Of a DNA stretch of 41,705 bases, positions 1,089 to 41,640 are shown piece by piece; the first letter of the stretch is position 1; every line of letters starts with the position of its first letter. The notes under the pieces are model-generated. The model had not been told where the DNA came from. It made no database searches and saw only the letters and a program-made list of their open reading frames with translations. The stretch covers positions 2,654,579-2,696,283 of the forward strand of contig NC_092214.1 in the NCBI RefSeq assembly GCF_043381705.1, given 5' to 3'. The translations under genes and the position numbers were made by a program. The stretch comes from Parasteatoda tepidariorum (lineage: Eukaryota).

Positions 1089-1382
1089 GTATGTTCTAAC
1101 TGATTATATTTTTCGTTTGTCAGAAATAATATGAAAGCAATTTTAAATTTAGCAATGTTTCAATGTAATTTATTAACAATTTTAAACTACCTATTTTAGA
1201 CATTTATATCTTGATGCAAAAATGTGTTGCTGTACACATTTAAAGCATTCACTTCTCCATAGATTAGTTTGCCTCTGAAAAATCAATCAATCATATAATT
1301 AGCAATTAAGCTTGCCTAAATATTTCTAAGAAATATTAGTATCCTAGTTGCAACAGATTTAAAAAAAAGTCTAAATTAAATA

Positions 1383-1415
1383 CACTATCTAGCCATTAAT
1401 GACCGGACACCCCTT
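1383..1415. repeat. Left terminal inverted repeat of the Tc1 element.
   Basis: Pairs as a reverse complement with 2580-2612 at 32 of 33 positions. Confidence 0.85.
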
Positions 1416-1424
1416 GAGCGGCAG

Positions 1425-2549
1425 GTGGACTCGTCCTGGCGGAATAAATACGGAACCTGTGGTGGGGGAAAGACCATTCGCAAGCAGGCGACGGCCATAC
1501 GAGCCTTAACAGTGAAGATGAGTGGACGGCAAGAGCTGAATGAGGCGGGAAGGGGCATAATCATAGGCGCCCACCTATTTGATCATTCCATACATGCCAT
1601 CTCCGACAAGTTTCAGTTACCACGGTCAACAGTTGGTGACGTCGTGTTGAAATGGGAACGAGAGGGAGTGATAAAACCGCAGTCCCGACCCGGCATGCCC
1701 AAAATAATGTCCGACAGGGATCGACGATCTCTTCGACGTGTAGTGAAGGCAAACCGACAAATGTCGTTGGACACTGTCGCTACCAACCTCCGGGCTGCAT
1801 CTGGCAATGTAGCCAGTACACGTACCATTCATCGGGAGCTGATTGCACAAGGATTCCATGGACGAGCAGCAGCACATAAGCCAAACATCTCTCCATCGAA
1901 CGCCCTCCACCGATTTCAGTGGTGCAGAGCACGTCGCCAGTGGACAGTAGAGCAATGGAAAAGCGTTATGTGGAGTGATGAGTCACGCTACATGTTGTGG
2001 CACTCTGATGGACGGGTGTGGACCTGGCGAATGCCCGGAGAATGGTACCTACTGGAGTGCATTGTCCCCACTGTGAGGTTCGGCGGTGGAGGAATTATGG
2101 TGTGGTCCTGTTTCTCATGGTTTGGCCTTGGACCCTTGGTGTTGGTGCGTGGAACCCTGAAGGTAGAAGGGTATAGAGACATCCTGTATAATTCGGCGCT
2201 TCCCACCCTGTGGCAACAGTTCGGTAATGGCCCGTTTGTGTTTCAACACTATAACGCTGCCATTCATAAAGCACATGCCATCACGGACTGGTTTGATGAA
2301 ATGGGGGTGCAAGAGCTTGACTGGCCATCCCAAAGTCCCGACATCAATCCAATTGAGCATCTCTGGGATGAGTTGGAGCGCCGGTTGAGGGCCAGACCAC
2401 AACGCCCCAAAACCACCACTCAACTCTTCGCCATGTTACAGGAGGAATGGCGGGCAATACCTGCCGCCGTGTACCAACACCTAGTGGATAGCCTTCCTAG
2501 AAGGGTTAAAGCTGTGATTCGGGCGCGTGGCGGCCCTACGCCCTACTGA
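1425..2549 (+). CDS. Tc1-like DD34E-family transposase. The biological start is probably the internal Met near 1518 ([19 protein letters not shown]...), which gives ~344 aa. The ORF is intact, but the second catalytic Asp is replaced by Tyr (FQHYNAAIH).
   Basis: Shows the paired-like HTH N-terminus ([30 protein letters not shown]), the first catalytic D in WSDESRY, and E in [16 protein letters not shown]. The middle motif reads FQHYNAAIH instead of the canonical FQHDNxPxH. There are no internal stops. Confidence 0.85.
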
Positions 2550-2579
2550 CTTGATACTAGCACCTCATGTATCCGAAAT

Positions 2580-2612
2580 GAGGGGTGTCCGGTCATTAAT
2601 GGGTAGATAGTG
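2580..2612. repeat. Right terminal inverted repeat of the Tc1 element.
   Basis: ggggtgtccggtcattaatgggtagatagtg is the reverse complement of the left TIR with a single mismatch. Confidence 0.85.
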
Positions 2613-3544
2613 TAGTTTTCTCTTGAAAAGATAGTCAGACTGATCACTGAAACATCTAAAACTTGTTTTTTCAGTAATTCAGAATCGTTTTAAAACTCTG
2701 GCATAAATTAAAGCTATAACATTGAAAACTTTATCTATTACTTACCCTAGGTCAAAAAGAAATTGATATTTAAAGAAATGAAACTATCTAGTAAGCACAC
2801 CATATTTTCCATTAAATAAATTTTTAAGAAATCAAATGATGCGAAACAAGTTGTAATAAAAAATTTTGGAAGAGAACTAATTCATCTTTCATTTCAAGTG
2901 TGTTGCATTTATGCAAAAATACTCTATAATTATGCATTGTCATTTAAGAAAAATATTTGTCATTCATTTGAGAAAGATCAGAGTAGATAGAAAAATTTAC
3001 TTTTTACTTTAATTAGGAAAAATCTTAATAAATTGTGTAATTAATACTTTTCTATATTTAAGGTTTTAAATAGATATAGATGTATTTTCATATAAATTTC
3101 ATATTCAGATTTTTAATAGATTCTTGTATCTCCTAATTTTGAAAAAGAAATTGGGGAAGGGTCAGTCAAAGCACAGTTTACTAAAAAATGTTTTTTTTTT
3201 AAATTATTTTTCCGTTAATCTAAAAATCATCCTAAAAAAATAAGACTTCAAAAAAAAAACACTGCGAAATTCATGATGGAAAAATAATTCTAGAAAAGTT
3301 AGTTTAAGCATGTTATGTTTCAACATACAGGAATCACCATTGTTTTTAATATTTTAGGAACTAATAAAAAATGTGAAAATTAAGCATCAAAAAACATCTT
3401 ATCCATTTCTATCTCTTTTTGTGTTAAATTTGGCATCTGCAAATGCCATTTAGATTCCATAGTACTCAGAGCAACAGCATTGTGATTTTCAAATTCAAAA
3501 TAAACTTTATATCATCAAACCTTATGTGGATCCTTCACCCATAT

Positions 3545-10450: not shown

Positions 10451-12207
10451 GTAAGTTTATAATTATATATTTTAAGGCTAATTAATTAATTACTAGGCAT
10501 TATTTAAATTTAAACAATAATAAACCATTTACTATTATTAATTATATATTTCAGACACATTATTAACATTTAAATGAAATTATTTTAATTTTACTAATAT
10601 TTTTAACAGGATTACTAATTTTCTGATGTAATCTTTTCAATATGAAAAGGAGCTTTATTTTTTATGTTTTTTCTCTTTATTTTTTAAAAATATTTTAATT
10701 TTTAAGAAAGTGTATTTATAACTTCTGGTGATTATGTGGAAAGTTAATGTGTGCGAGCTATTAACACTTAAATCAATTTTTTTCTAGCCAACCACAGCAG
10801 AGACTTTATTTACAGTATTATGTCATCTCAAAATCCGTTCATTATTATTGTTTGTTTTCAATCATTATTTTGTAACTAATTTTATGTAAAGAGCATGGAA
10901 AAGTACACATATTTAAAATTTAATTTATTTGCCACATTATAAAAGTACAATATATATATAATTTAATTTTCTAAGCTGTATTCAGCTTCGCACAATAATG
11001 TTTAATATCTGTGTCTCTCAGACTTGATTGCAATGAATTAATATGCGTGTAATACAATACACAGAGATGACACAAAGTTAGACTGGTGGGTAAAACTTTT
11101 TCCTTTATATAAAGCAATAAATTAGATAAAAAAAATTCTAACAATAGTAACAAAACACCAGTAGGTAAATTTTAATAGTAGAAAAATATGACGAAATTGT
11201 AATTCAACATTTTCTTCCCAAGTTCTAGGTAAAATAAGTGATTCTGTTGATATCTTTTCTTCTCCCTGGTTGTTCAGATAACATTAATTCATTGCCAAAA
11301 TATAACTTATTATAATAAACATGGAAAGATCACTTAAATACTTGAGTTTACAAATCTCAAAAGAAAAAAACAAACAATTCCAAACAATGTGTAACAACTA
11401 GTTGACTTTTTAAATCGAAAGTTACTACATGGCATTTTTGTAACTTTGAAAAAAAAGTTTGATGAAATTCCAAACCACTAACCATGTGACAAATCACAAT
11501 TGAAAACGGACAACAATATGCATTTTAATAAAATATGGCAGCAGTATATAAGTTTATAAAATCTCTAAAATATTATTAATTGTAATGTTATAAAAATAAA
11601 TCAAAGTAGGAAGAAAGATAGTCTGAAGCAGTAAATAGAAGCTTGTTTGGAAATAGAAGACATCTGACTGTTCCTGATTGTTTGTAAAGTCATTCTACCT
11701 GTAGAACTTGAAAATTGTGGATATTTTGAGGCCCTCGATGCCTCAGGTATACAAACAGACCTATTACGTTCTGGTAAATAATTAACTAATAATTAGTAAA
11801 TTCTAGTAAATGATTAGTTAGCTAATAAATAATTTTTTTAATTAACCTTTTAAATACAAAGTTACTTTAGTTAAAACTAAAATGTTTGCAAGTTTATTAC
11901 AAACTAAGTCATTATTTAACTAAGTAACAAGCAATCTTAGTTAATTCCTGAGTTAGATATTTGGTTACCTAGCAATTTGTTGTTTCTTTGTAACTAAAAT
12001 AAAGCTATTAAGTAAATGGGTATTTTACTTATTAATTTTTAAATTAGTAACTAAAAAACTAACTAACTTTAAAAATCACTGATTACTGAATAAGCAGTAT
12101 TGAAATTTAAGTATTCAAGTAACTATTCGTTTTTTATTTATTTTTAGACTGCAGTTGCTTTTATATTGTTGTTATTTTGTGAATACACGCATATAGGTAT
12201 AGATATG

Positions 12208-13113
12208 CAGGGTGTTTATAAAGTCCCGAACCCATTTTGATGTTTAATAACTCATAAAATAATAAAGATAGATTAAAATTAATAACATAAATGGTTAGAT
12301 AGACTCAAAAAGTTTCATGACCCTTGTCAATGAACTTCCACGTGTGCCCCCTTCATCACAAGGAGAATATCAAGTCGATAGTCAATTTCATGCCAGGTAG
12401 CGGCAAGCATGTCGGCATCCACAGAGGCTATTGCTGTTGTAATTATGGCTTTTAGGTCATCAATGTTCAACACGATCCTCCTGTAAACATTGTCCTTTAT
12501 AAATCCCCAAAGAAAAAGTTCAGCGGCTTTATATCAGGTGATCTGGATGGCCAAGAAATTGGACCTCCTCGCCTACAGAAAAGACGGTCTCATCAGTCAT
12601 ACACTTAGACACGGTGGAAAACTTCGTTTTTCCACAACTAGAAGAGCTTCAGCCACATGTCTTTTTGCAACAAGATAGTGCACCATCTCATTGGGGTATC
12701 ATCGTTCGTAGTTCTTTGGATGACCATTTTCTAGGAAGATGGATTGGGCGAGGAGGTCCAATTCCTTGGCCACCCAGATCACCTGATATAACGCCGCTGG
12801 ACTTTTTTCTTTGGGGATTTATAAAGGACAATGTTTACAGGAGGATCGTGTCGCACATTGATGACCTAAAAACCAGAATTACAACCGCAATAGCCTCTGT
12901 GGATGCCGACATGCTTGCCGCTACCTGGCGTGAAATTGACTATCAACTTGATATTCTCCATGCGATGAAGGGGGCACACGTGGAAGTTCATTGACAAGGG
13001 TCATGAAACTTTTTGAGTCTATCTAACCATTTATGTTATTAATTTTAATCTATCTTTATTATTTTATGAGTTATTAAACATCAAAATGGGTCCGGGACTT
13101 TATACACACCCTG
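12208..13113 (+). mobile_element. Foldback (near-palindromic) derivative of a mariner/Tc1-superfamily element. Two inverted arms of ~390 bp each (12208-~12600 and ~12710-13113) are built from the 3' end of the transposase gene plus the TIR. Only a ~100-bp unique centre separates them.
   Basis: Terminal 30 bp cagggtgtttataaagtcccgaaccc pairs with the reverse complement of gggtccgggactttatacacaccctg. Internal arm segments (e.g. 12393-12421 against 12900-12928, and 12478-12573 against 12749-12845) are reverse complements at roughly 90-95% identity. Confidence 0.75.
12614..12994 (+). pseudogene. C-terminal transposase fragment of the foldback element (Tc1/mariner superfamily), containing the 2nd and 3rd catalytic-region motifs.
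   Basis: Reads FLQQDSAPSHW ... GRGGPIPWPPRSPDITPLDFFLWGFIKDNVY. The QQDxAPxH and PPRSPDxTPLDFFLWG motifs resemble those of insect mariner-like transposases, from memory. The N-terminal two thirds of the gene are absent. Confidence 0.7.
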
Positions 13114-14778
13114 TATATTTAATAAATCAAATAAGAATTCAAAGCTACAATCAAAAGAAAAAATAGCTGCTAAATCACCAATTTCTTTGAGGTACTAATC
13201 TGGGTTATCAAATTAGAAGTTAAAATGGGTTAAGTATCAATATAAAATTTTCCATTCTAATTATTTTGTTTTAAGTACCTTTTAGCACTATCAGTTTTTC
13301 AATGAAATTTAACTTATACATCCTTTAAATGAAAATATTCTACTAAACTTACTTACATATACTGTACTATGCGTAGTAAATCTCAAACTTGTATATGGTT
13401 TAATAGAGTAAAAAAATTAAATCTAATTTGTTCATTATTTTCATTTTCTATCGATATGTACTACTAGAAGGAGTTATTTCCTCATTTGTGTTCTGATCAA
13501 TGGTCTTACGAAATCTTAGGCATAAATGCATGAAAAAAAGATAGCTCTTCAGACTTTATATACTTACCAATTTAATCATTATCTCAAAGTCACATATTTT
13601 TCAAAAATATAATAGTATAAAAAATAAAAAACAAAAATAAATATAATTGTTAGTTTAATTTTAAATAATTCCATAGTGAAAATCCCTGTAGTGTTTTCTG
13701 TTAAAGTTATCTCTATAATACTCATACAAAACAAATTGTGGGCTAATTGATGAGACTGTAGTGGAAAATGTAGCTGTGGGAAACAAATTACAGGGTAACC
13801 AAAAAAATAATGGAGGTGTTAGTGATTGTGCAAATTTTTGCTTTTTAATTCAAGTTTTTTTACTATCAGAATGTTTGCTTTCTTAGTTTTATATAAGACA
13901 GTTTTACGTTTTGAAAAGAAACCATGTACATTCTAACTTTAGATTTCTCAGGCCATATACATTCTAATTTTTTATTTTGAGATATTGCATTGAAAATATA
14001 ATGAATAATAACGATGAAAAGAATACAACTGACATATAAAATTTTTTTTCAGTTTTATCAGTCTTTAGAAAAAATTCATTTAATAACTGAATACCCTATT
14101 GGGAATAATCTAACAAAATGCATTTCTCCATTTTATAATTCTTGATAAAATAAAAAAAAAATGAGCTGACAATATTTTTTAGTTTTCAAAAATTTCTGGG
14201 AGATTAAAAAAACTGGGTAGAACAATCGCATTCACCAAACATTTATTGAAAAGAAAGTGAATTTATGTCTGAAATTTTGGTGATACATGACTTGAAAGTC
14301 GGTAGTCATAATGATAAGTTTTTTGCTGTTTGTATATTTTATCAAGAACTTTTATAGTTTTGGCTATTTTTATAGTTTTTTTTAATTTTCTGTATTTTTT
14401 ATCACAATTCCTTTAACTTATCTCTCTCTTTTATGAAAAATCTGAAAATTAATCTAACATTAGTGTTAAAATCAACTTTGTGGCTTTTAGTGAGATTCTA
14501 ATGAATTTTGTGTCATAGATTGAAAAGTAGTTTTAACATGTTAATTTCTAAACATCTTTAAAAAAATATTTATTAATTCTGCAGTTTAATCTGAAATTAT
14601 TACATCTTTCGAAACATAACATTATTGATTTAAATAGAGTTTTAAATTGTGTAAATATGCTTTTGTTTATAAGAATTATAATTAAATATTATTTATATTA
14701 TCAGAATTTCTGCACAAATATTTAACCCAATATCTTCTGTTATATTTGCTTATGAACTAGTTTGCTTTATTATTTCAG

Positions 14779-17637: not shown

Positions 17638-18435
17638 TCAATAGCACTTTCGATAGCTTTTAATCCATCTGTATGTGAAAATATATCGATTTTCATCCTC
17701 ACTGTCTTCATCACTAGATTCCTTTTCCTTATTCACAGTATTGATGATCATTTCATCCGTAATTTCTTGTTGTTCGTCAGCATTTATCCAGTCACGTATA
17801 TCCTCTTCGTTTATTGGCTCAGCTAGTGGCAGTTTAATGACTAAATCCAAAAGCTCATCACTACATTCATTGGACTTTCCGTGATGTTCTGTACTCTGTG
17901 TATCAATAATTTTCCTCAACAACTTTTTTATGGTGTCTGATTTTACTTCATCCCATGCCTCAGCTATCCAGTAGACAGCATCCTTTACATTTAAACTTTT
18001 AATTGTCTCAGGAACACTTTTATTTTCCTCAATTCCTTCAATAAGAAATTTTAGTAATTTCTTTCGATAATTTCTCTTCATGTTCTCCAAAACACCTTGA
18101 TCTAAAGGCTGAATAAGTGATGTGACATTGGGCGGCAAAAAAAGAACTTTAATGTTGCCACTCGCCAATTCATCATCATTCGGATGACATGGAGCATTGT
18201 CAAGCATTAATATTGCTTTCCTTGGAAGATTTTGATTTTTTAAGAATGTCTCTACGTTAGGAACGAATTCATCAAAAAACCATTTTTTGAGCAAATCCGC
18301 ATCCATCCAAGAACTTTTTTGATTTTTGTAATACACTGGTAAACTTGGAATATGAATGTTCTTAAATGCTCTAGGTTTTTTCGACTTGCCAATCAACATT
18401 ATCTTAGTTTTAGGTTTCCAGATGCATTCAAACAT
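17638..18435 (-). pseudogene. pogo/Tigger DDE_1 catalytic domain and C-terminal tail (265 aa), which ends in an acidic stretch.
   Basis: Reads LDNAPCHPNDDELASGNIKVLFLPPNVTSLIQPLDQGVLENMKRNYRKKLL, the hallmark DDE_1 motif of pogo/Tigger/CENP-B-like proteins. This frame overlaps the upstream ORF 18399-18587, which indicates a frameshift. Confidence 0.8.
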
Positions 18436-18540
18436 GCTAATATTGTTACCCTTTCTTTACTTATCTTGTACCCCGGAGCTGACCTTTCATTCTTTGCCGC
18501 AAGAGTTTTTGAAGGCAACATTCTAAAGTTAAGTCCTGTT

Positions 18541-18831
18541 TCATCGCAATTGAAAAGTTTCTCCATTTTCAGATTTTTTTTTTGCAATGAGATTTTTAAA
18601 ACTTTCTTTGAATTTAATCACCTCCTCACAGTCAACTGATAATTTTTCTCCCGATATATTTAATTGACGAATTCCATATCTCTTTTTCCAACAATCCAAC
18701 CATCCACTTCTAGCAGTGAAATCTTCTCCAGCATAAAGAAGTTTATTAAAGTCCAATGCTTTTGCTTGTAGCATAAGCCCTGATATGGGACTTCCCTTTT
18801 CTCTCAATTTCGGATGTTTTTTCAAATTCAC
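18541..18831 (-). pseudogene. pogo transposase second HTH (HTH_Tnp_Tc5 / CENP-B-like) segment. It is in a different frame from the neighbouring pieces.
   Basis: Reads FTARSGWLDCWKKRYGIRQLNISGEKLSVD, matching the conserved F.AS.GWL..FK.RHGI motif of pogo/Tigger transposases. Confidence 0.7.
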
Positions 18832-18877
18832 ACTTTTTCATTATTTTTCGTAAACTGCAATTAGCCTTTTCTGCACT

Positions 18878-19144
18878 TCATATTTCTATTTCATTTCTCT
18901 TCCTTTTCCAGTCGCCAACAGTAACAGCTCCTACTCCGAGAACTCTCGCTACTTTCCTTATTGATTCACCTTTATCTAATCTTTGAATTGCTTCTAATTT
19001 TGTTTCTAAAGAAGCAACAACTCGCTTTCTCTTTTTGCTACTCATTTCGAATCTGTAGAATTGACTGAATGTAGCCACTGTACTTTTTCCCGCAAAACAA
19101 TTTCCCGATTCCAGGGAGGGAATCATGTGACCAGTCGAAACCAT
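18878..19144 (-). pseudogene. pogo transposase N-terminal psq/CENP-B-type HTH segment (MSSKKRKRVVASLETKLEAIQRLDKGESIRKVARVLGVGAVTVGDWKRKRNEIE).
   Basis: Shows the classic CENPB-N/psq helix-turn-helix pattern (K.R..L....K...I...E.G.S...VA...GV...TV..W.K.R). Confidence 0.75.
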
Positions 19145-21995
19145 TTGGTAGTAAGGGGGGATGGGTCATTTGACTAGACAACGAAAACAATTCAGCATAC
19201 TCTCTTTCGTTTCATGCTTCTCTTTTTGAACCCTGAAACTGAGAAGAAGACCAGCCCTCATAGGCCCCCATGTAAACCTGTTCCGGAGGCAACGGTTACC
19301 TCCATCAAGGTGGGGAAGTATTGCTAGGAAAACAACCTGCCTCCTTACAGAGGGTCCCTCCGTCCTTACCCCGTAAGCAACCCCATTCCTCTCCGCTAAT
19401 GTAAACAGATAATAAAAAGTGACTCAAACCCCGTCTGCTTTTGTTCTTTACAGACTTCTATGGTTTTGAAAAAGGTTTGCTTATTAAGCAAGGAAAATAT
19501 TCACTTGTGACGAATTCATTAAAAGATAAATATAATTTATTATTTTAACTTAGGTGTATAATTTAAACAGATATCCGTCACTTAAAGATGTCACTTTAAA
19601 GATGGCGAAAAATTTGTTGTTAAACAAGTTTAGAGACGCTATGATGGATGAAAGATCTGCGCATGCGTCAGCTCAAAAAACCTTGGTGCGTTTCTTGTCA
19701 TACAGAGTGACATTGCTGGCCCTTGCTACGTATAGGAGAAGCTAGCTGAGTGTCGCAATATTCTTCTTTCAAAAGATGGGGAGGGGTGGAGCGGTGCGTG
19801 ATACAATGCAAAGTAAGCGGAGTAGTGCTGATGGATTTTGTTTTCCTGAGTGTTTGTGAGATCAAGTTCAGAATTTTTTTCGGTAGTTTAAAAAAGTAGG
19901 AAATGTAGAAGCAAAGCCAAAAAAAAAACTTACAGATATTTGACAGCTTGGTTAAAGTGGAGACTCGGATAATCGGGGCTCGGATAACCGGGGTTTTACT
20001 GTTACTGTTTTTCTTATACTTGGAGGAAAACTAATTTTAAATTAACTCTAACAAAAATTAATTTTCTTGTTCTCAGAGGAAAATTAATTAATTTTAAAGT
20101 ACCTTTAAAAAGTTTCAAAGAGAAATATAACAAATTTTTTTAATATCTGAAATTACTTGTTAATAATTTTTTTTTTACTAGTTATGTATTTTTTTTCAGA
20201 ATCGACAATTAAAATTATGAGTTAATGCAAATTTAAATAAATGTAAGCTCAAATTTCCTAATATATCATTATTTATTTATGCGATGAATAATCATAAAGC
20301 CTTTTGTAAATGAAACAATAAGTAAATATTTTTTTTAAAGTTTCAAACCATTGGAGATTTCCAAAAATTGGGCCTACTATTTTTAATGCTGTCTTATGTA
20401 TAGCCTTTTTGTTAAAAGAAATGTTCTTGTTATGTTCACAAAGAATACCTGAATCTCTGACATAAACCTCATTGTAACTTATGATATCATTACTTAATCT
20501 TAGATGAATTGATTATGCAGTTTGTTAGGCAAAACAGGAATCCAACTTATGTGATAAACTATTTTATTGGTGAATCACAGCGTTTCTTAAATTATAACTA
20601 ATAAAAAATTTTAATAAGAGAAATTCAGTCTCCGAAAAAAACACATTAGAATTAATTGTGGCTAAAAGTTTTTAAACAATTGTTGTTCTGGAAATATTAA
20701 TCTTAACCTTGCTATAAGTATTAAAATTATGTTTTTTAGCCGTTCTTATGACGCCTACTTAAAATATTTTAATAAACTTATGTCAAAAGTAGTCTTATAC
20801 ATTATTGGCAATCAAAATGGGCTACAGGTGGCATAGAGCAGAATTCTCTACCTATGGCAACCCTTAGTATGCTTTCACCATTAGCGTGTGGAGAGTCATA
20901 TGAGAAAAAAACGTGTTAGTTTCTGTCTTGATTTTCAAATAGGTTAAAAACTTTTAAGTTAGGAACTATATGGAACTGAAAACTACATTCAACATGGATC
21001 TAAAATGAAAACATGGAAATTTTAAAAAAATAATTTTGACAGGTAAAAACGAAAAACATTAGGAAACGGAAAAATATCGTAGTACATTTCTATACAACTG
21101 AAAAGAGAAGGAAAGGGAAGGGGAGGATCAATACATGGAACCAGTCTTCTCCCCAGATAGCTTATTCAAGCATTGCGATCGTGAATATTTTACTATAAAT
21201 TTGTGTATTCAACTCTTATATAAAACAAATGTAACTCATTTTTCTCACAAATTATAATATATCTTCAAATTTGATGTAAATTTAATGCAAAGTAATGTTT
21301 TAATTTCTTTCTGTTTTTTTTAATATCTGTTGCACTGTTTTGTATTGGATAGAGAATCAATTTTAAATGCTATATTTTTAACTATATTGGTAAATGCATG
21401 AAACTTAATCGTTTGATTTCTTTACTTACAAGTTATATAAAAACCAGACACTGTATTTAAGGGGAAAATTATAGACAATAAATTAGCAGCATTTATTTGT
21501 TATTAATGGCATTAATTTTTTGTTTGTTTGTTTTATACTCTCACAGTAATTTCTTTAGTGTAATTTGCTATAATATGGATCAGAAAGCATAATAATAATT
21601 CATAAAAATCTATATAATGTATAGATTTGTTTTGAAATTGTTGCATGATTGAAATGAAAATGCTAGGCCATGCTTGACATCTTAATATTTAATTTCTTTG
21701 TTTATTTCTTGTTGTTAGTCATATTACTCTCAATTGTAATTACCTTTTCATGTCTGTTTTATTCCTTACTGTATAACGTGTATCTGGCTTATAAATCTAT
21801 TTATCTTAATTTTCTACGAAAAAAATATATCTTATTAGAATGTGAAATTTGGTGTTTTCCTTTTACTTTGACAACTTGGTTTCAAATTTTAAAGTTAGTT
21901 TAATATTGTTTTTATCTGTGTGACAAGATAATCAATATTTCCTAAAAATATTTTTCATTCATCATTATACTATTTTAAATAATGTTTGTATTTAG

Positions 21996-26929: not shown

Positions 26930-27065
26930 GCAACTACCACTACAAATATTAAATACTGAATCACTAGTATATAAGACATGTTAACTTGATTCCATTTTGA
27001 GGTGCCTTTTGATAGATGAAAGTGGCCATAGCCGATAAATCCCCTCATACATTCTATAATGTTTG
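26930..27065. repeat. Copy of a dispersed repeat that is also present at ~41005-41110.
   Basis: Shares the ~60-bp core cactagtatataagacatgttaac(t/c)(t/c)gattc.at.ttg.gg.gcct.t.atagatga with the other copy. Confidence 0.5.
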
Positions 27066-29767: not shown

Positions 29768-29914
29768 AATTTCTGTGTTGAAGGGTCACAGGCAAAGTGT
29801 TACTTGTTGCTGTGCTGATCCAACAGGAGGAGTGTTACTGTCTTCCAGTTGGGACAATACTGTTCGCCTGTGGAGTTTACTTGATGGGAGATCAATATCC
29901 ACCATTGATTTTAG
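29768..29914 (+). CDS. Host gene exon encoding a WD40 repeat (ISVLKGHRQSVTCCCADPTGGVLLSSSWDNTVRLWSLLDGRSISTIDFR).
   Basis: Acceptor catatttcAG at 29766-29767 and donor TTAG|GTTTGT at 29915. GH..V.......G..L.S.S.D.TVRLW is the textbook WD40 signature. Confidence 0.65.
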
Positions 29915-30098
29915 GTTTGTTCAATATTCACTCAAATATTTGAATTTATTTTTTCAAAATATAAGCTGAAGGAATTGTTTCAAGCTATAAAATTAAGTTA
30001 CGAAATTTAGCTTTTCTAATTAGCACCCAGAGATGCCAATGAGAGTGTTTCCCCCCACATACAATATTTAAAAATGTTGTGAAATTACAATTTATTAA

Positions 30099-33000
30099 CC
30101 CTCCTGGCGGCAAGCCTGTTATAACACGGGCATGATTTCTATGCTGAAAGCGGCTTGCCCGTGTATGCACGGGTTCACGTTCTAGGTCTAGAGCGGCGAT
30201 CACGTCTTTTTCTGAACTAGAATATTTCCTTCCCCCTCAACCTCCTACTGCTCACAAATTGAGAGACGTATAAGCTGTCATCGTAAATCACCCACTGTTG
30301 TGCTAGAATATTTCTGTTTGAATAGATGTGAATAGTTTGCGTTCTTTTTCATGTTTGAACCCCAATCAAACCAAAAGTTTGCCTGTAAGAAACAGATTAC
30401 ATTTTTATTTTCTCCAACACTTTCGAAATATTGAATTTTGTTTTAAAAAATATATTCATTGCTTAATTTATTATACTAAATCTATGAATAAATAAAATCG
30501 TTTCGTATTTTTAAATTTCAATTAATTTTCGAAAAAGCATTTTTCATTTTAGAGTAAATTGCAGGAAATTATTTTTTGTCTAAACAAATGCAATATTTAA
30601 TGAACTAATTAATGAATTTTTAATATTACTAATTTTCCATAGTATTTAACTAATTTATTTAAATTAGTTAATTTTTTTAAGTATTATGTTGCTTACAAAA
30701 AATTAAAAAAATTTTTATCTGGCAAATGAAGTTAACTCTTAAAACACTCTTTCCTCTTTCTGTAATGTTAAAGACTTTCTCGGCATTTTTCTAAAAATCC
30801 CATCACTCAAAACACTAGTTTTATTTGTACTTTAGTTAAATGATATTAAAGCATTTTCATGGATAGAGAAAAAATCGAAATTCGTCTCATTAGTAAATAC
30901 ATTTCTCATTCATGTGAATGTATAAGTAAATATTTCAGTAATGATAAATAAATTTAATGATAAACTCAAATTTCCTTAATAAATAATAATAAAAAAATGT
31001 ACAAGCTGTTAAAACTCCAAATAACTAAGTGAGTTATAATAAACTAAATATTTTTTTCAAGTCCACAAAATAAATGTAAATATTTTATTCCACTCAAATA
31101 CATTTTAAATATACATACATTTAGATATACATTTTAAAGAAAACGATTTTTTTTAAAAGTATAACTGATTATATTTAAAATATTTAAGTAATCGTTGTGA
31201 AAATTCCAGTAACTAAAATAAAATATTAAAATCATTGCACATTTTATATACTTTAATTGTTGGAACACTTGCAAACAAGATTTTTTTTCTTTCAAAAAGA
31301 TGTTTTATTTTTAATTAAATTCATCATTAATTTGATTCAAAGTACAATTTTTTCTATAATATCATTCGAAATCCAAATAAAAGTGTGTGTAAACTCAAGG
31401 GTGTAAGCTCGAGTTGTGTTGTAATTATCATGTTTGTAAATTTTCCGGAAACCTGGAAAGTAATAACGCTTCGGCGCATTGAATATTCGATAGTCTTAAA
31501 AATCCCTTTTTTTACGATCCGGAATCGAAGGGTTGTTGATAACGAGGGTGAATACATTTTTGATAAAAAATAAAATCTTGGTAACAAATATCAAGTACAT
31601 CGAAATGACATTTCTTTCAGATCTCCCTAATATTTCACGAATTTAAAAGTTGTTCAATCCAGATGGTCGGAAACAACCAACGTAAGTATTACAGTACTGA
31701 CATTCGTACTAAAATATGCATCGATTGATTGTCTGAAATCTAAAGTAGATGATTACATGATGTTTTTGTTAAGTTATTAAAATAGTTTTCAGAAGTTCAA
31801 TTTGAAATGGGGGTGTGCAAAGCGATAAACAAACCCTTATTGTGATGTAAATATAATCTAGACAATACTTATCATACTAGTGTCCAGATATCATACTAGT
31901 GTCCATACGAGTTATCATACAGTTTCATCTAAAGGTCACGTTTTCTTTTCTGTTCATGGTCAAAAATACTGTAAAAGGTGATCTAAAAAACTGGGCGTAT
32001 AGTACTAAAAGTGTATTGCACAAGTTAGAGAAATGCAAAATGTAGAGAAGATTTGTAACTATATTTTCTGCAATTCAATTAAAGTCTAAACTTCGACTGT
32101 AAAAAAAAAACTTAAAATAAGAGCTTAAATAAACTTAAAACAAAAAATAAGAATAAAAGTAAGCTAGAATTAAAAATAAAACATAAATGAACTTAAATAA
32201 AGTACACGACAATTCTGCGAACTTAACAAGTAAAATAATCGAAGTAATGGCTAAAATTTATGATTAAAAGTCACGGAAAATAAAATTCAATAACACTGCA
32301 ACAAAATATCCATTTTGCTTCATCAGTAATCTTTCGATGCATATTGTATGCAGAATTTGCTTTTGGAATAAAAATTAACTCGCTACTTGAATAAAAAGTT
32401 TTAAAAATATTTGGGAACTAAAATGGAAGGCATTACATTATTTTGATTCTTTGGAATTGTATATTTTTGAATTTGTAAATGACGTTATAAACGAATTTAT
32501 AAAACATAATCCAACAAATCATATGTTTAAAAAAAAGCGATAGCAAGTTTTTGTGCCCAACCACAATCTCAATTTCATTCATAATCCACACAATTCATAA
32601 ATATATTGCTATTTATTATAAATACAATATTTTTAAAATATTACTCTTATGAATAGTAAATATGACTATTAAGGGATACAAGTTTTATTATTCTAAATAT
32701 ATTTTACCCCATATAAATTAAAATCACGGATAACATAACTTAATGTTAGTGTTCATTATTAATTATTATAAGAATAATTTTCTTTTAAAAAAAATTTTTA
32801 ATTTAATTTTTCTAGAAAATAAAAAGTTGTTATGACCTTTAATTTATTGATATTTGACCGAAGTAATGCAGAAAATTTTACTTTCCTTATTTCAATAAAT
32901 TTTTCTGCTTATGTTACATAGGTTCTTTGATTTTTTACTGCTAAGCTGCGCACTATAAAAAGTAAAAAAAAAAAACAAAGAAAAAATCCTATATTTATTT

Positions 33001-34703: not shown

Positions 34704-34851
34704 TAAGTAAAATTGTTTAAAATTTTTCAACACTAATGCATCAACATGATTGTCAGGATGGTATTCATAACTTTGAGTTATTTATTGGCCATGGTGGACA
34801 TAATCATTTCAAATCTTATTAAACCAATTATCAGACATTAAAATCCATATC

Positions 34852-36098
34852 CAGTGGTACCTCGAGATACGAGTGCCCTAACATACGAGTTATTTGAGAT
34901 ACGAGCTGTCGAGCAAGCAAAGTTTTGCTTTGAGATATGAGGAACGGCCATGCAAGCCCTTCTCGTCCTCGGCAATGCTCCTGCTCACCCACCAAGTCTC
35001 GAACAGGACATCCTCGAAGATTTCACGTTTATAAAGTCACGTATATACCACCTAACACCATTCCTATCCTGCAGCTCATGGATCAGCAGGTGATTTCTAA
35101 TTTTAAAAAGCTGTACAGTAAGCACCTGTTCTGGCACTGCTTTGAGGTGACAGAGAACACAAACCTCACCCTTCAAGAGTACTGGAAGGACGACTTTAAC
35201 ATCGTGATGTGCCTCAAAATTATTGATCAGGCCTGGCTGAGTGTTACAACGAGGACCTTGACCTATGCATGGAAAAAGCTGTGGTCTGTAGCTGAAAATT
35301 GTGCTGTCGCCTGAGTCTGTAGCTTCGAAGGATTCGAACCCGAAGTGCCAGTGGAGGTGGAAATAGTGTCTCTTGGAAAATCCATGAACCTGGTGATGGG
35401 TGAGAGAGATGTGAACGAGCTCGCCGAGGAACACTCTCAGGAACTGACGACCAAGGAATTACAAGAGTTACAGTCGCAGCAGCATTCAGGGGTTCTGCAA
35501 GAAATTGGTTTCGAGGAAGAGGTGGAGGAGGTTATCTCTACAAGTGAGATAAAAGAGTTCTTGGGAATGTGGGAGAGAATTTCACTGTTCGTGGAAAAGG
35601 AACACCCCGAAAAAGTTGCAACTGGTCGTACATCGGAGCTATTCAATGACACTTGCCTAACTCATTTCTGCAGCATTCTAAAAAGGAGGGGAAAAAAACC
35701 TCCTTCGACAGTTTTTTTTTATCCGGCTAAAAAAGCAAAAACCAGTGAAGAGAAAAGCAGTCACTAAAATTAAGCATACAGTAGCATTTAAGTTGTGTGT
35801 AAGTTGCATTTAAGTGACCAAAATACAAATATGTATGTACACTTTGTAAAACCAGTTTTTTTTTTTTTGCTTTAAATTTTCTTTTATTATGCTTTTATAC
35901 AATATTTGTCATTTATAAATACATTTTTCTTATCCAAAAACACGTAACAAAAACAATTGGGGGTAGCATTTTTTGGGCTGGAACGGATTAATGGCATTTC
36001 TATTAATTTCAATTGGGAAAATTACTTTGAGATATGAGCAAATTGACATACGAGCTAGGTTACGGAAGGAATTAAACTCGTATCTCGAGGTATCACTG
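34852..36098 (+). mobile_element. Internally deleted Tigger/pogo-family element (~1.25 kb) with 23-bp TIRs (cagtggtacctcgagatacgagt, and cagtgatacctcgagatacgagt as reverse complement). A TA follows the 3' end.
   Basis: The TIRs match at 22 of 23 positions. Internally, the + strand ORFs 34937-35314 and 35345-35767 encode the distal part of a DDE_1 domain (IPPNTIPILQLMDQQVISNFKKLYSKH) and a Tigger-type acidic C-terminal region. Confidence 0.75.
34937..35767 (+). pseudogene. C-terminal third of a Tigger/pogo DDE_1 transposase, in two frames.
   Basis: PPNT.S.LQPMDQGVI..FK..Y-like motif, followed by a Glu-rich tail (EEVEEVISTSEIKEFL). The N-terminal HTH and first catalytic residues are absent. 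Confidence 0.7.
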
Positions 36099-36432
36099 TA
36101 TTCATATATAATATTTTAGAAAAGTTTCTGGCTAAAAGCTTAAGAAGTTGGACGCTTTTAGCACCAATTATGTTTGTATTGTCACCTGAAACTTTTACCT
36201 CTAGAAAATCATATCAACTAATCATTACTATTAAGAATTTAACATTTTCTTACCTAATCTATGATGATCAGTTGATCACACTTGCTAAAAAGATTACCCC
36301 ACATTATATCATCAAAATCAGAGATATATACAATTTTTAATAGTAAAAAGTATTTTTTTTTTCGCTTTAATTGTTTATAGATTTTAATTTAGTTTTCTAT
36401 AATTTTTTTAAGTAAGCAATTTGAAATTTTCA

Positions 36433-36542: not shown

Positions 36543-37134
36543 GTAAGTTGTTAAGCTTATCTATATGTTGTTAGAATTTATATTTGCTGTTTACTCTGAT
36601 GATTTTAACCATTGCATTATAATGGACTTAGGACAGCTTATGTTAGAAAATGAGCTAAAATATATTTGAAATAGTTTTGGAAGAATTTAATACAAAGAAA
36701 AGTTTTATGAAAACAGTAGTTTGTTGCTGATATGGTAACTTATTTTTATCAGTTAATTCATTTCTTCGAGTAAGGGGAGCATGGGAGGTTTAATCAACCC
36801 TATCTTTTTCATACATAAATATTATTTAGCTGATGAGCACCAAATTTGAGAAATTGCCTTTTGTTTCTGTCTATTATTTGCAAGTAATTTGCGAGTAAAA
36901 TAAATCAAGGAGAAATAATTTGGTGATATAATTTTTTTTTTTTTTGGAAAAAAGTTATTTTTTCATAACTCTTTTCTGTACCATCTGTCATAACGGAAAG
37001 CAAAACATTCATTCGATTCAATTATTTACTATAACATTATAATTCGTTATTTACTGTAACTTTTTATTTGTAATATTTTGTTTTTCAAAAAGGTTAAGAG
37101 AGGTCTGACCTATCATACCAAATCCGTGATTTTA

Positions 37135-39163
37135 ATTACCGTATTTTTCAGCGAAAGCGCCGCACATCGATAAAAATAAAATTTTTTAAAAAAAAAGTTA
37201 TAGTAAGCGCCGCAATGACGCTAAACCGCGCATATCAGCATCCTTTTAGAAGAGACCTTTAAATTACCATTTAGAATATCTGCATAAAAAAAATAAAAAA
37301 AATTTATGCATTTCATAAAGTAAAGTTCTAATTTCTAATTATAAATTTCTTTTTCAGCAAAAAAAAAGCAACAAAAAAAGAAAACAGAACAATATAAATA
37401 AAGCACCGCGCCAAAAAGCAGAAGAACAGCAAAAAAATATTTATATGTTCAGTAGCTGAATTAACGCTGAACTGATTACAGAAACCCGTAAAACAATGTA
37501 ATAAGAAAAATAAAATAAAAATTTATTAAAAGAAAGATTTTAAAATTTATTACCGTTAACAATTTGAGGAAAAACTAATACATAATAATGAAACAGCTAA
37601 TAATAACGAAATAACTAATAATAACAAGAATAAGAAATAACTAAGCAGGCCCCAAAAAAATTCTGAAGGAATGAGCGAAGGGGAAATAAGTTTCACTTTC
37701 ACAATCTTTGAGGGTGGAATTTTAGTGGGTAGAATGCCCTCTCCTTCAATGGAAATAACCCAATGTGACTCAACTTAGAAAGAGAGAAGAAAATGTTTAA
37801 AAGAGGGGTGTACCCCACCTCCTCCACGTGTCATTTCTATTGGAGCTGTTTAGGAGGAATCAATCAGTTATATTTTAAAGGGGTTGGGGAAAAGAAAAGG
37901 GTATGGGACCCCTAATCCAGCATTCCAAAATTCGGCACTTAATCTGATCTAATCTTTTTCTTTTTTTTTTTAAGAAATTTATATTGATAAGACAAAAAAA
38001 ATCAGCTATATTCTTTTTATTTGGAATTTTATTCTGTTGAAGTAACTTACTTTATTTTATCTTTTAAAAATAAAAAAGCAGCTTGAAAAAAAAAATCTGT
38101 GTCAAAGGAAACATCTGTTTCTTAAGCAGTTTAAAATAAATTGAGAAGTAAAAACATCTGCATTTCCAATGAACAAAATAAAGAAATGCAAGTTGGAAAA
38201 AACTGATCAATCAATCTTGACAGCTAGGCTTGCACTTTACTGATTCGCCCCCAATTCTCCCTCCTCTGTTTGACCATAAATTGGCCACACCCAGTTGACA
38301 TTGAAACTACCATGTAGACAACAAAATGAATTCTATCCCTTTTGCGGTTTTTTATTCGATTTATTAATTTTTTATTTTGCCGCTTTTTATTAGTTATTAA
38401 CTGCTAATTTGTTTTTTTTCTTGTTAATAGTTGTTTGCTTGTTTTTTTATTTTTTATCTTTATTAGTTTTTAGCTTGTTTTTTGCTTGTTCTTAGCATTA
38501 ATTGTTACATTTTTTTTTTTGTAGTTTCTTGTTAGCTTTTTTTTTTCATGCGAGATTAGCCTCTTTTGTTAAAACAAAATGTTATCTAAAAGAAAAAACG
38601 AGAACTATGATCTTGCTCCAAAGAAGAAACGATTATGTCTTCTTCATAGGATTCGGATTATTTCTTCTTGATTATATTATATAGATTAGTAAAATTTCTT
38701 AAGATGGGCCAGTTTTAAATTCACCCCATCATAATCTACGATCGAAACTTGACTAAATTTATTGGTTTTTCTGAAATTAACAGTGGAATTGAATTATAGT
38801 AATATTTGGGGGCCATATTGGAATTTCCGAAAGAGATCCGAAGTTCGGCATTTCGTCAGTCCCGTGAGTGTTGGATTTAGGGTCCTATTACTTCCTTTTC
38901 TGTTCGCTCAAATTACAATTGCCGATGTTCTGCAGCAGATCGCGATACCGGCGAATATTTCGTCGACTTCGTTATTAATTTTTTTTAATAGTCTTTCTCT
39001 CAGAAAATTATTTAATCTTAAATAACTTTCCTTGAAAAAATTTTTTGCTACTAAAAAATATTTCGTCGGAAGCGCCGCTGCATCGGAAGCGCCACATGTA
39101 GGAAAAAAACAACTTTTTTTTCCATAGCGCCGCGGCGCTTCCGCCGAAAAATACGGTAATCCC
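37135..39163. mobile_element. Non-autonomous TIR element of unassigned family (~2.0 kb). It has 29-bp TIRs (attaccgtatttttcRgcgRaagcgccgc) and GC-rich subterminal direct repeats ((a/g)aagcgccgc, aatatttcgtcg).
   Basis: The 5' end 37135-37163 matches the reverse complement of 39135-39163 at 27 of 29 positions. Additional aagcgccgc copies lie at ~37208, ~39070 and ~39085. The interior is A/T low-complexity with no ORF. No clean TSD is discernible. Confidence 0.55.
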
Positions 39164-39329
39164 AATCAGGATTTTCAGCCCTGTAAAATTGAAAGTCAAA
39201 AGAAGAAAAAATTAAACAAAAAAACTTTGCAAAATATTTAGATGAGATTGAGTGACTGACAGGAAATAATAGAATTGTTATCAAATTGTTTAGTTAAAGG
39301 AAGAATAGAAGAATATTTTTTCCTAAAGT

Positions 39330-39545
39330 GCACGATTTCAATCATTATCAAAAATACTATTAAAGATGATCTAAAAGAAATTGTTATACTGTTGTAAACA
39401 AAATGTATTGCATAAGTTAGAGAAATGTGAAATGTCGAGAAGATTTGTCACTATATTTTCTGCAATTCTTTTGGAGTATTCCTCAACTGCAAGAAATTAT
39501 GAAATTTAAAAAAAAGCTTAAATAAACTTACCGAAGTAGAACTTA
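39330..39545. repeat. Second copy of the dispersed repeat seen at 31925-32170.
   Basis: ~90% identity over the ~55-bp core, with flanking similarity. Confidence 0.65.
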
Positions 39546-40469: not shown

Positions 40470-41004
40470 GTAAGTATGTTTTTGTAATTGATTAACTAAT
40501 AGTACTTTTTTTAATATAGTATTTTTTTAATGTCATGTAAAAGAATTCTTGAGAATGTATTACAATTGTTCTCACTTACTTCCATATCGGATAATTTAAT
40601 AATCAGCTTATAAAAACAAAATTTAGTAAATTTATGTGAAACAAATTTTAAATGTTACTTCTTCACTAAATTGCATAATGAAGAGAAAAAATGATTTTCT
40701 TAAAGAAATGTTTTATTAGCTTGAGGGTAATTTTCCATTTTTCAGTTAGGAAAAAAATATTTTACGTAGTTATTTTAATGGGAGCTTATTCATTGTAGCT
40801 CCTAACAAGTGTCAGGGGGCAATTGAAGAATTAGAAGTCATATAGTAATCATGGGAGATTACCTTTCTTTGACCCTATTCACCATTTAACATTTTTTATT
40901 TAGTTATTTTCTGGGGGCCAATTTGTCAAAGCATTTTCCATTTCTACATGATTAAAAAAATTATATGTGAAAATTTACTTTATTGGTGTAGGGTATCTAC
41001 TACT

Positions 41005-41110
41005 ACAAAAATACAATTCCAATTCACTAGTATATAAGACATGTTAACTCGATTCTATGTTGGGGGGCCTTTATATAGATGAGTGTTGACATTGTCAATA
41101 ACTTCTCACC
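41005..41110. repeat. Second copy of the dispersed repeat seen at 26930-27065.
   Basis: Shares the cactagtatataagacatgttaac core. Confidence 0.5.
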
Positions 41111-41269: not shown

Positions 41270-41640
41270 AAATCTATTTTACTTTATTGTAGCGAATGTC
41301 AAACTTTCAGAAGGGCATTCAGAACATTATCTTCCTTCTCAATTAAATTTCAGAGGAAAATAAAGTTTTCAATTAGGAAAATAGATTTAAAGTCGAAAAT
41401 GAGAGTTAAATATTAATTTTACTTTATTTTTGCGAATGTCTGAATTTCAGAAGGGGTGAAGTATATTCTTCGCCCCATCACTTTAATTTAAGAGGAAAAT
41501 AAAATTGTCTTTTTGGAAAATAGTTTACACAATTTTGCCCCTCTTACTTTTATATCAGAAGAAAATAAAGTTTTCGACCCCCTCACTATAATTCAAGAGG
41601 AAAATGAAGTTCTCGATTTGGAAAATAGCGTCGAAGTTTT
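41270..41640. repeat. Tandem repeat of about three units with a ~110-135 bp period. Its core is ...c(c)cc.tcac(t)t.aatt.aagaggaaaat(a/g)aagtt.tc.atttggaaaatag.
   Basis: Three successive units begin near 41276, 41408 and 41545, with clearly homologous subsegments (e.g. 41335-41385, 41472-41524 and 41577-41630). The array runs off the window edge. Confidence 0.6.

Follow-up and report, generated by a model that had tools for sequence, protein, structure and literature searches.

Inverted-repeat arms and repeated motifs of the unit

In the stretch of DNA analyzed here (the window, 41,705 nt), a span of 2,026 bp, referred to below as the unit, is bounded by two inverted-repeat arms. The left arm (37135 to 37163, plus strand) reads ATTACCGTATTTTTCAGCGAAAGCGCCGC, and the right arm (39132 to 39160, minus strand) reads ATTACCGTATTTTTCGGCGGAAGCGCCGC as its reverse complement; the two agree at 27 of 29 positions, with identical outer 15 nt, and their two mismatches are the R positions in the consensus of the first-pass annotation. 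Inverted pairs of this quality no more than 5 kb apart are expected about 2e-4 times in the window at average composition and about 4e-7 times for the GC-rich composition of the arms, which excludes a chance pairing. The 29-bp inverted repeat reported by the first-pass annotation is thus real, and its right end, given there as 39163, moves 3 nt inward. The architecture of the arms consists of the perfect AT-rich outer 15 nt followed by a GC-rich inner 14-nt palindrome, CGGCG-GAAG-CGCCG, which has an intact 5-bp stem and a GAAG loop in the right arm (39133 to 39146) and is degraded in the left arm (37149 to 37162). GC-rich islands at the ends, also described earlier, are present (34 to 49% GC, compared with 29% for the window), and the observed/expected CpG ratio is 2.6 at the unit ends versus 0.62 window-wide. 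All boundary choices concern one copy and were made after inspection of the sequence.

The repetition of a GC-rich 9-mer at the ends is borne out. With at most one mismatch, AAGCGCCGC has eight matches in the window against 0.66 expected, and none of 100 shuffles reaches eight. Seven of the eight fall inside the unit, on the plus strand at 37155, 37205, 37401, 39070, 39087, and 39125 and on the minus strand at 39132. The array is polar rather than mirrored: the six plus-strand copies are direct with respect to the left arm and inverted with respect to the right arm, as illustrated by the copy at 37205 to 37213, which is 41 nt inward of the left arm and has the same orientation. This arrangement, with six of seven 9-mers on one strand, differs from the subterminal repeats of hAT, P, CACTA, and Mutator elements to which the motifs had been likened. 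A second motif, aatatttcgtcg, said to occur on both sides, has only two exact copies (38954 and 39057), both on the right side.

The copy at 39057 is the beginning of a third, partial arm copy, AATATTTCGTCGGAAGCGCCGC (39057 to 39078, plus strand), which matches at 19 of 22 positions. The outermost 7 nt of the arm are missing from this copy, and it runs in inverted orientation to the right arm next to it. Its AT-rich half is repeated by an isolated AATATTTCGTCG (38954 to 38965, plus strand), and a further degenerate copy of the GC-rich motif, CATCGGAAGCGCCAC, is found at 39081 to 39095 (plus strand). Where the right arm's inner tip meets the neighboring internal 9-mer copy, the two form a perfect 14-nt palindrome, AGCGCCGCGGCGCT (39126 to 39139). 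In addition, the partial arm copy pairs with the right arm in a long imperfect hairpin (39061 to 39148), for which single-stranded DNA folding gave -33.5 kcal/mol (z = -5.5), a stability reached by none of 200 shuffles.

The interior (37164 to 39131) is non-coding, rich in A in its left half and in T in its right half, and contains three islands of moderate GC content as well as short tandem repeats with units of 18 to 21 nt (37569 to 37640) and of 11 and 36 nt (38414 to 38496). Nine of its 15 stop-to-stop frames of at least 40 aa were compared with Pfam at E values up to 10, and no domain was detected as a coding remnant; the only match among the frames run, to SAVED, was sub-threshold (16 bits) and was judged to be noise. 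An Rfam scan of the whole window returned no match. The inverted repeat does not extend inward, where the A-rich left and T-rich right halves share only low-complexity similarity of 60 to 68%.

No second copy was found in the window by blastn (word size 9), and the pattern TACCGTATTTTTCNGCGNAAGCGCC had no match in the metagenome collection. The looser pattern CCGTATTTTTCNGCGNAAGCG matched 37 metagenome, 41 prokaryotic-genome, and 2 viral sequences, which were rejected as chance matches, being single, unrelated, and dissimilar beyond the pattern; those from metagenomes and genomes lack a second arm and are mostly of higher GC content, resembling bacterial coding DNA. A spurious 85-aa ORF running through the right arm, used as a query, retrieved no ORFs on other copies. 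The Tc1 transposase encoded in the window, looked up exactly with two alternative starts, had no identical record; in a homology search its best full-length match was at 76%, a half-length match at 91% came from Parasteatoda tepidariorum, and many further matches were from spiders. Together with the 29% GC of the window, Parasteatoda as the best named TE match suggests that the host is probably a theridiid spider, whereas a WD40 exon from the window had no homologue in the collections searched. Two 20.8-kb araneid spider loci, reached via Tc1 homologues, gave low-complexity matches only. A full-text literature search with the arm sequence returned only unrelated primers, and the arm motifs are absent from the supplements of PMC4067079.

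The presence of three arm-like copies rather than two, with a right end that is itself an inverted duplication, raises the question of whether the arms belong to one transposition unit. Two incomplete family members facing each other could produce the same picture, as could an element reshuffled by recombination or by a nested insertion; the DNA separating the arms would then be unrelated to them. The interior is indeed heterogeneous, its GC-richer islands being apparently unrelated to the ends, and loss of the target-site duplication would be expected after recombination between copies. However, the third copy is far less similar to the full arms than these are to each other, the spacing of the facing arms is what a single non-autonomous element would typically show, and the interior matches no other repeat in the window; we consider such a composite origin unlikely. 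The earlier reading of the unit as a non-autonomous mobile element, with genuine inverted ends at which GC-rich motifs recur, is almost certainly right. The unit is very probably one old, inactive copy of a DNA transposon, mobilized in trans by a protein whose gene lies elsewhere in the genome.

Target site, flanking repeat, and cut-and-paste superfamilies

Target-site duplications were sought at every boundary between 20 nt beyond the arms and 8 nt within them, and none of 2 to 10 bp rose above chance. This agrees with the earlier remark that there was no clear duplication, and the lengths put forward for classification (8, 9 to 10, and 3 bp) are all absent. A paralogous empty site was not found within the window under either boundary model considered below. 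The arms are adjoined by an imperfect direct repeat of 15 to 16 nt (13 matches, 2 mismatches, and 1 gap). Its left copy, CCAAATCCGTGATTTT (37118 to 37133, plus strand), holds the small palindrome AAATC-CGT-GATTT and is separated from the left arm by 1 nt; its right copy, CCCAATCAGGATTTT (39161 to 39175, plus strand), holds AATC-AG-GATT and begins directly after the right arm. The associated p value of about 0.005 to 0.011 is the share of random position pairs that outscore the repeat, and it was obtained after several exploratory tests. Outward, the anchored inverted-repeat extension reached p = 0.025 over 30 nt and p = 0.013 over 100 nt, mostly because the flanking repeat is itself a palindrome.

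Taken at face value, CCAAATCCGTGATTTT and CCCAATCAGGATTTT would be a true duplication of 15 to 16 bp, left by a eukaryotic transposon lineage, so far undescribed, whose ends are 29-nt terminal inverted repeats and whose unusually long staggered cut falls on a target that is itself a short palindrome. The close placement of both copies against the arms fits this idea, only 0.5 to 1.1% of random position pairs score higher, and the symmetry of the target would be in keeping with a dimeric enzyme. Yet a p value near 0.01 carries the exploratory tests that preceded it, the identity of the repeat is about 81% compared with 93% for the arms, and part of the match is made up by the run GATTTT. Moreover, we know of no eukaryotic cut-and-paste superfamily with duplications longer than about 11 bp; long or variable duplications belong to other systems, namely, retroelements, which lack such inverted ends, and casposons, which are prokaryotic. 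In Helitron2, duplications accompany 5′-truncated one-ended copies. A true long duplication would indicate a new insertion mechanism, and we regard it as highly improbable.

A more conventional explanation is a non-autonomous cut-and-paste element, in which the 29-nt arms are true terminal inverted repeats and a DDE transposase supplied from elsewhere would bind the repeated 22-nt site as double-stranded DNA, excise the unit, and reinsert it. Its likeliest version is a TA-targeting element of the Tc1/mariner/pogo type spanning 37139 to 39156, with the ends TA-CCGTATTTTTC...GAAAAATACGG-TA. A near-perfect terminal inverted repeat of 25 to 29 nt is the classic signature of this class, and repeats of the pogo family are mostly no longer than 40 bp and come with a TA duplication; TA is available on both sides here if the palindromic tip ATTA is split. 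The three occurrences of the 22-nt site are those that a protein-binding site might show, and the best-conserved part, the outer 15 nt, is where conservation would be expected beside a cleavage site. Tc1/mariner and pogo-type elements also dominate spider genomes and are present in the window (1378 to 2617, 12200 to 13121, 17641 to 19165, and 34849 to 36101). Inverted repeats of 25 to 29 nt and a possible TA on both sides are what the unit has in common with non-autonomous pogo/Tigger or other Tc1/mariner-type elements.

Several features argue against this assignment. TA, like AT and CG, lies within the palindromic tip ATTA/TAAT, and its direct repetition is therefore automatic and uninformative. 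The tip is CCGT, not the usual CAGT or CAGG, and the arms are unlike the Tc1, mariner-like, and pogo-like ends elsewhere in the window, a mismatch that had already been recognized from inspection. Unlike Tc1/mariner-type elements, the unit has asymmetric ends, with a polar motif array and a hairpin at one end only. Furthermore, GC content is higher in both near flanks than in the DNA farther out, a joint condition found at 0.6% of window positions, and the unit may therefore reach beyond the arms. Cut-and-paste transposition is accordingly a serious possibility, to which we give less than even weight, slightly below that of the rolling-circle model.

The remaining superfamilies fail on the length of the target-site duplication (hAT and P, 8 bp; Mutator, 9 to 10 bp; CACTA and PIF, 3 bp; piggyBac, TTAA). 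The unit resembles hAT elements (Ac/Ds, Hermes), in which transposase binds short subterminal repeats, in being an otherwise AT-rich non-autonomous element with short CG-containing motifs repeated within about 50 to 270 nt of the ends. However, almost all of these motifs share one strand, the arms exceed most hAT repeats in length, the tips are ATTAC rather than YARNG, and the best 8-mer match for symmetric boundaries (5/8) is at chance level. The hAT-like outer tips CAGGGCTGA and GAGGTCTGA, about 23 nt (right) and about 35 nt (left) outside the arms, have no flanking 8-bp duplication, and freely chosen outer boundaries gave only a 7/8 match, as expected by chance, with no inverted repeat at the edges. 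P, Mutator, and Merlin were rejected on the lack of a 7- to 10-bp duplication above chance and CACTA on the lack of CACTA tips; the TTA (left) and TAA (right) that PIF-Harbinger would use are inverted, not direct, and the TTAA of piggyBac is present on the left only. Nor does the MITE-like label proposed at first pass suit the unit, which at 2,026 bp is too long for a usual MITE, as generic MITEs are below about 800 bp and have high copy numbers.

A possible Helentron-type rolling-circle origin

Judged from a single copy, a HINE/DINE-1-like element fits slightly better than a cut-and-paste one. We therefore tentatively favor, at somewhat short of even confidence, a non-autonomous rolling-circle element of the Helentron/Helitron2 type (HLE2), lying on the minus strand at approximately 37087 to 39165; in this model the choice of strand, the precise limits, the enzyme involved, and rolling-circle transposition itself are all inferred. 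The Rep/helicase (HUH nuclease) of an autonomous partner would act on single-stranded DNA, recognizing the 5′ inverted repeat folded onto its downstream complement (the hairpin at 39061 to 39148), and would then copy through the element. Termination would take place where the 3′ inverted repeat (37135 to 37163) gives way to a short tail bearing small palindromes and a run of T, and the product would be inserted into T-rich DNA without a target-site duplication, as is consistent with the scan for duplications of 2 to 10 bp. The published description of Helentron-derived HINE/DINE-1-like elements combines inverted repeats, the lack of such a duplication, palindromes next to the repeats, a single terminal hairpin, and a center of low complexity (PMC4067079).

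The hallmark that the arms themselves contribute is the 14-nt palindrome CGGCG-GAAG-CGCCG, which resembles published arthropod Helentron subTIRs; these have a short CG-containing stem and a GAA, GAAA, or GAAG loop (for instance, GACGTGAAAACGT, CGTCGAAGACGTCA, and GAAGTGAAACTTC; Table S2, PMC4067079). One end only has a complement of the repeat just downstream, as seen in the perfect palindrome and the stable hairpin on the right side, and this one-ended arrangement has been described for Helitron2, DINE-1, and oyster HINEs. The polarity of the 9-mers (six plus, one minus) would suit recognition of one strand. The center is of low complexity with short tandem repeats and has no ORF or Pfam domain. 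However, the inverted repeat of 29 nt exceeds the 8 to 18 nt of published HLE2 elements, no Rep/helicase remnant, second copy, or empty site is present in the window, and the prior for this class is lowered by the dominance of Tc1/mariner and hAT elements in spider genomes.

A candidate 3′ tail, TAAAATCACGGATTTGGTATGATAGGTCAGACCTCTCTTAACCTTTTT (37087 to 37134, minus strand), tentatively assigned to the element, spans 44 to 49 nt. Its two small palindromes are AAATC-ACG-GATTT and AGGTCAGACCT, it finishes with the T run of CCTTTTT (CTCTTAACCTTTTT), and its GC content is 40%, compared with 15% in the DNA further out. Published HINE tails measure 38 to 60 nt and have ends such as ...TCTTGAACCTTTT and ...CACCTTTTT, and the general description of the group places the 3′ repeat 20 to 60 nt before the 3′ terminus; on the minus strand, TT is located 3 nt upstream of the 5′ repeat. 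A CCTTTT end at the distance of the tail occurs at 1.2% of random window positions. Several of the supporting features are common by chance in DNA of 29% GC: a run of at least four T ending at 38 to 60 nt is found at 32% of random window positions and a palindrome with a 5-bp stem within 50 nt at 40%, and none of the small hairpins is individually significant against shuffles. The T runs are best on the plus strand, whereas the secondary structure is best on the minus strand. The Helentron-type model also has no place for the GC-rich 23 nt to the right of the right arm or for the direct repeat of 15 to 16 nt.

Annotation of the unit and comparison with known HINEs

The unit, very probably a dead copy, is non-coding, lies in TE-rich spider DNA that is probably intronic or intergenic, and is most likely an ordinary element; the biological stakes are small, and the practical value is one of annotation. 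Where inverted repeats are not accompanied by a target-site duplication, an element tends to be catalogued as an unknown MITE, and Helentron-derived elements of the kind considered here are often misannotated in this way (Thomas et al. 2014, PMC4067079). If the family is Helentron-derived, it would add a chelicerate lineage with an end repeat about twice the usual length, which current Helitron-finders, with a repeat limit of 18 nt, would miss.

HINE/DINE-1-like elements are non-coding, about 0.3 to 2 kb long, and have inverted repeats with a palindrome near both ends (PMC4067079, PMC3627910, PMC7492417); their 5′ repeat pairs with a downstream complement, their short 3′ tail carries a palindrome and a T run, and they have T-rich flanks, insertion between two T with no target-site duplication, and a low-complexity or tandem-repeat center. 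The unit is like them in its non-coding sequence, inverted repeats with a palindrome, 5′ hairpin, and low-complexity center, has a candidate tail of this kind, and differs in having several extra GC-rich half copies near one end. In addition, the complement that forms the large hairpin is 53 nt away here, compared with 0 to 22 nt in the known elements, whereas a second complement, of 6 nt, is directly adjacent.

Arms, interior and coding capacity of the unit

In the 41,705-bp window (29.1% GC), a left arm at 37135-37163 (+ strand, ATTACCGTATTTTTCAGCGAAAGCGCCGC) and a right arm at 39132-39160 (- strand, reverse complement ATTACCGTATTTTTCGGCGGAAGCGCCGC) are identical at 27 of 29 positions and bound a unit of 2,026 bp. 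At the window composition, ~2e-4 inverted pairs of this type are expected by chance anywhere in the window at a distance of up to 5 kb, and the same 5-kb criterion gives ~4e-7 for an arm as GC-rich as 37135-37163; the inverted repeat reported in the first-pass annotation is therefore not a product of chance, and only its end has to be moved, as the right arm stops at 39160, 3 nt short of the position 39163 assigned to it. Each arm consists of an outer 15 nt that is the same on both sides (ATTACCGTATTTTTC) and an inner 14-nt palindrome, CGGCG-GAAG-CGCCG, which is whole in the right arm (5-bp stem, -7.5 kcal/mol) and broken in the left arm by one of the two arm mismatches. Blastn within the window found no other sequence similar to the unit or to its ends, and the ends are distinct from those of the other transposons in the window, as had been noticed before.

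The interior is A-rich on its left side and T-rich on its right side, with short tandem repeats at 37569-37640 and 38414-38496. Its longest ORF has 87 aa; Pfam (E up to 10) gave no credible match among 9 of the 15 stop-to-stop frames of at least 40 aa, and Rfam gave zero matches over the whole window. Because it has no coding capacity, the unit is non-autonomous, and we regard it as very probably a dead copy of a non-autonomous DNA transposon, for which the earlier term MITE-like is a loose one at a length of 2 kb. The mechanism of transposition is uncertain; whatever it was, the unit is one degraded copy of a new or unidentified family of a known kind of element, which would not surprise a specialist and bears on no long-standing question.

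Flanking sequence and target site

Duplications of 2-10 bp were scanned for at boundaries between 20 nt outside the arms and 8 nt inside them, with an allowed asymmetry of 1 nt, and none stood above the level of random position pairs. The only perfect direct repeats at the arm boundaries are AT, TA, and CG, which arise automatically because they lie within palindromic stretches of the repeat tip; the TA therefore neither supports nor excludes a Tc1/mariner/pogo element. The absent 2-10 bp duplication excludes hAT, P, Mutator, Merlin, CACTA, PIF, and piggyBac for this copy; the proposed analogy to the subterminal repeats of hAT, P, CACTA, and Mutator elements fails as well, since neither the duplications nor the tips that define these families are present and the repeats lack mirror symmetry.

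The earlier statement that there is no clear target-site duplication thus holds for 2-10 bp, but a longer gapped search detected an imperfect 15-16 nt direct repeat immediately next to the arms (left copy, 37118-37133, CCAAATCCGTGATTTT; right copy, 39161-39175, CCCAATCAGGATTTT), with p values of ~0.011 (4,000 random pairs) and 0.005 (GC-matched pairs). The core of this direct repeat forms a small palindrome, which is why the inverted repeat extends outward in blastn. A real 15-16 bp target-site duplication would be the sole striking reading of the unit, if true, and is very improbable.

The near flanks are GC-richer than the DNA beyond them: 40% versus 15% on the left, over 43 nt next to the arm, and 52% versus 23% on the right, over 23 nt. 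Only 0.6% of window positions show this joint pattern, a hint that the mobile unit may reach past the arms. All three exact window matches to TTACTRTAAC fall within 37022-37206, two outside the left arm and one inside it, and a 35-nt inverted pair (83%; 37051-37085 versus 37172-37206) spans the same arm; both may be chance features of AT-rich DNA or mark a unit extending further left.

Polar end motifs and mechanism of transposition

With at most 1 mismatch allowed, the 9-mer AAGCGCCGC has 8 copies in the window versus 0.66 expected, so its enrichment is real; 7 of the 8 lie inside the unit, which bears out the repeated GC-rich end motifs seen at first. The copies at 37155, 37205, 37401, 39070, 39087, and 39125 are on the + strand, and the sole minus-strand copy in the unit lies inside the right arm at 39132; the array is polar rather than mirrored around the unit centre. 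A second motif, AATATTTCGTCG, had been placed on both sides, but both exact copies (38954 and 39057) are found only near the right end. The copy at 39057 begins a partial third arm copy (39057-39078, 19/22) that is without the outermost 7 nt, and the three end-like sequences, when aligned, are related over about 30-60 nt. The unit ends are rich in GC and CpG (CpG observed/expected, 2.6 versus 0.62 window-wide).

The right-arm inner tip and the adjoining + strand 9-mer form a perfect 14-nt palindrome (39126-39139, AGCGCCGCGGCGCT). Since the right arm pairs with the partial arm copy lying 53 nt inward of it, 39061-39148 folds as a long hairpin, with -33.5 kcal/mol as single-stranded DNA (z = -5.5; equalled by 0 of 200 shuffles); the left end has no comparable fold (z = -2.2).

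The main rival, an ordinary cut-and-paste element, most plausibly a TA-targeting one, is favored by how long and well matched the arms are and by Tc1/mariner/pogo elements being dominant both in spiders and in the window; it is weakened by an atypical tip, a polar motif array, and a hairpin on one end only, and is slightly less likely than the reading preferred here. Rearrangement or a composite structure is improbable. We tentatively favor a Helentron/Helitron2-type (HLE2) element resembling HINEs or DINE-1, which are non-autonomous Helentrons, as this description covers more of the unit's anatomy than any cut-and-paste family. In such elements, short inverted repeats lie near both ends and contain or adjoin a palindrome. 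The 5' repeat pairs with a complementary stretch downstream of it, while behind the 3' repeat comes a tail of 20-60 nt that holds a small palindrome and a run of T; simple or tandem repeats occupy the centre, and insertion is into T-rich sites without duplication (PMC4067079, PMC7492417, PMC5148889, PMC3627910). The misannotation of these elements as MITEs was described by Thomas et al. (PMC4067079).

[quoted passage not shown] With a CG-rich stem and a GAAG loop, the palindromic inner half of the arm is built like listed arthropod subTIRs, for example CGTCGAAGACGTCA and GACGTGAAAACGT. The HLE2 assignment, whose boundaries were picked after inspection from one copy, is weakened by a repeat length of 29 nt versus the 8-18 nt published for HLE2, by T runs and 5-bp palindromes that are common by chance in the window, and by small hairpins that are individually not significant; it leaves the flanking direct repeat without explanation.

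Searches for further copies and other elements of the window

Two araneid loci, obtained via Tc1 homologues, contained no sequence related to the unit, and a protein search with a spurious ORF reading through the arm gave no match. Arm DNA patterns retrieved only lone, unrelated matches resembling bacterial or phage coding DNA from metagenome, prokaryotic-genome, and viral collections. The 19-base arm core CCGTATTTTTCNGCGNAAGCG is ~10 times commoner in prokaryotic genomes than expected from uniform composition, the matches being single, unrelated, and apparently coding; short patterns of mixed GC/AT content give numerous false matches in very large collections.

At 1 kb upstream of the unit lies a short, internally deleted pogo-like copy (34849-36101); its inverted repeats are 26 nt long (92%; CAGTGGTACCTCGAGATACGAGT), and of DDE_1 it retains just the C-terminal part. 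Unclassified dispersed repeats of 75-79% identity occur downstream (39342-39530 versus 31929-32137; 40997-41101 versus 26934-27038), followed by three diverged copies of a ~110-nt unit at ~140 nt spacing (41276-41628, also unclassified) that Tandem Repeats Finder did not score. A probable host exon (29768-29915) with AG/GT splice borders encodes one WD40 repeat (Pfam WD40, E = 2e-11) and had no homologue among 5.8 billion proteins, a collection that apparently covers neither the source species nor its near relatives.

A pogo/Tigger-type transposase that is nearly complete (17641-19165, - strand) is spread over three frames and carries DDE_1 (E = 2e-42), HTH_Tnp_Tc5 DNA-binding, and CENP-B N-terminal domains. 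A 318-nt inverted duplication (96%; 12200-12517 versus 12804-13121), in which another inverted pair is nested, surrounds a fragment of a mariner-like ORF (12542-12991); the whole region, 12200-13121, is a rearranged, foldback-like mariner remnant. A Tc1-like element (1378-2617) is flanked by TA at either end, carries 37-nt inverted repeats (95%), and retains an intact transposase ORF (1425-2549; 343-374 aa). The database search with this transposase yielded many spider homologues, fish and spider ones being intermixed; the best full-length match was 76%, and the closest named one, a Parasteatoda tepidariorum protein, was 91% over half the length. Spider genomes have 28.6-33.6% GC, and the window probably comes from a theridiid spider. 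The element has 53% GC and its flanks 26-27%, and this contrast, together with the intact ORF, suggests that it arrived recently, possibly through horizontal transfer.
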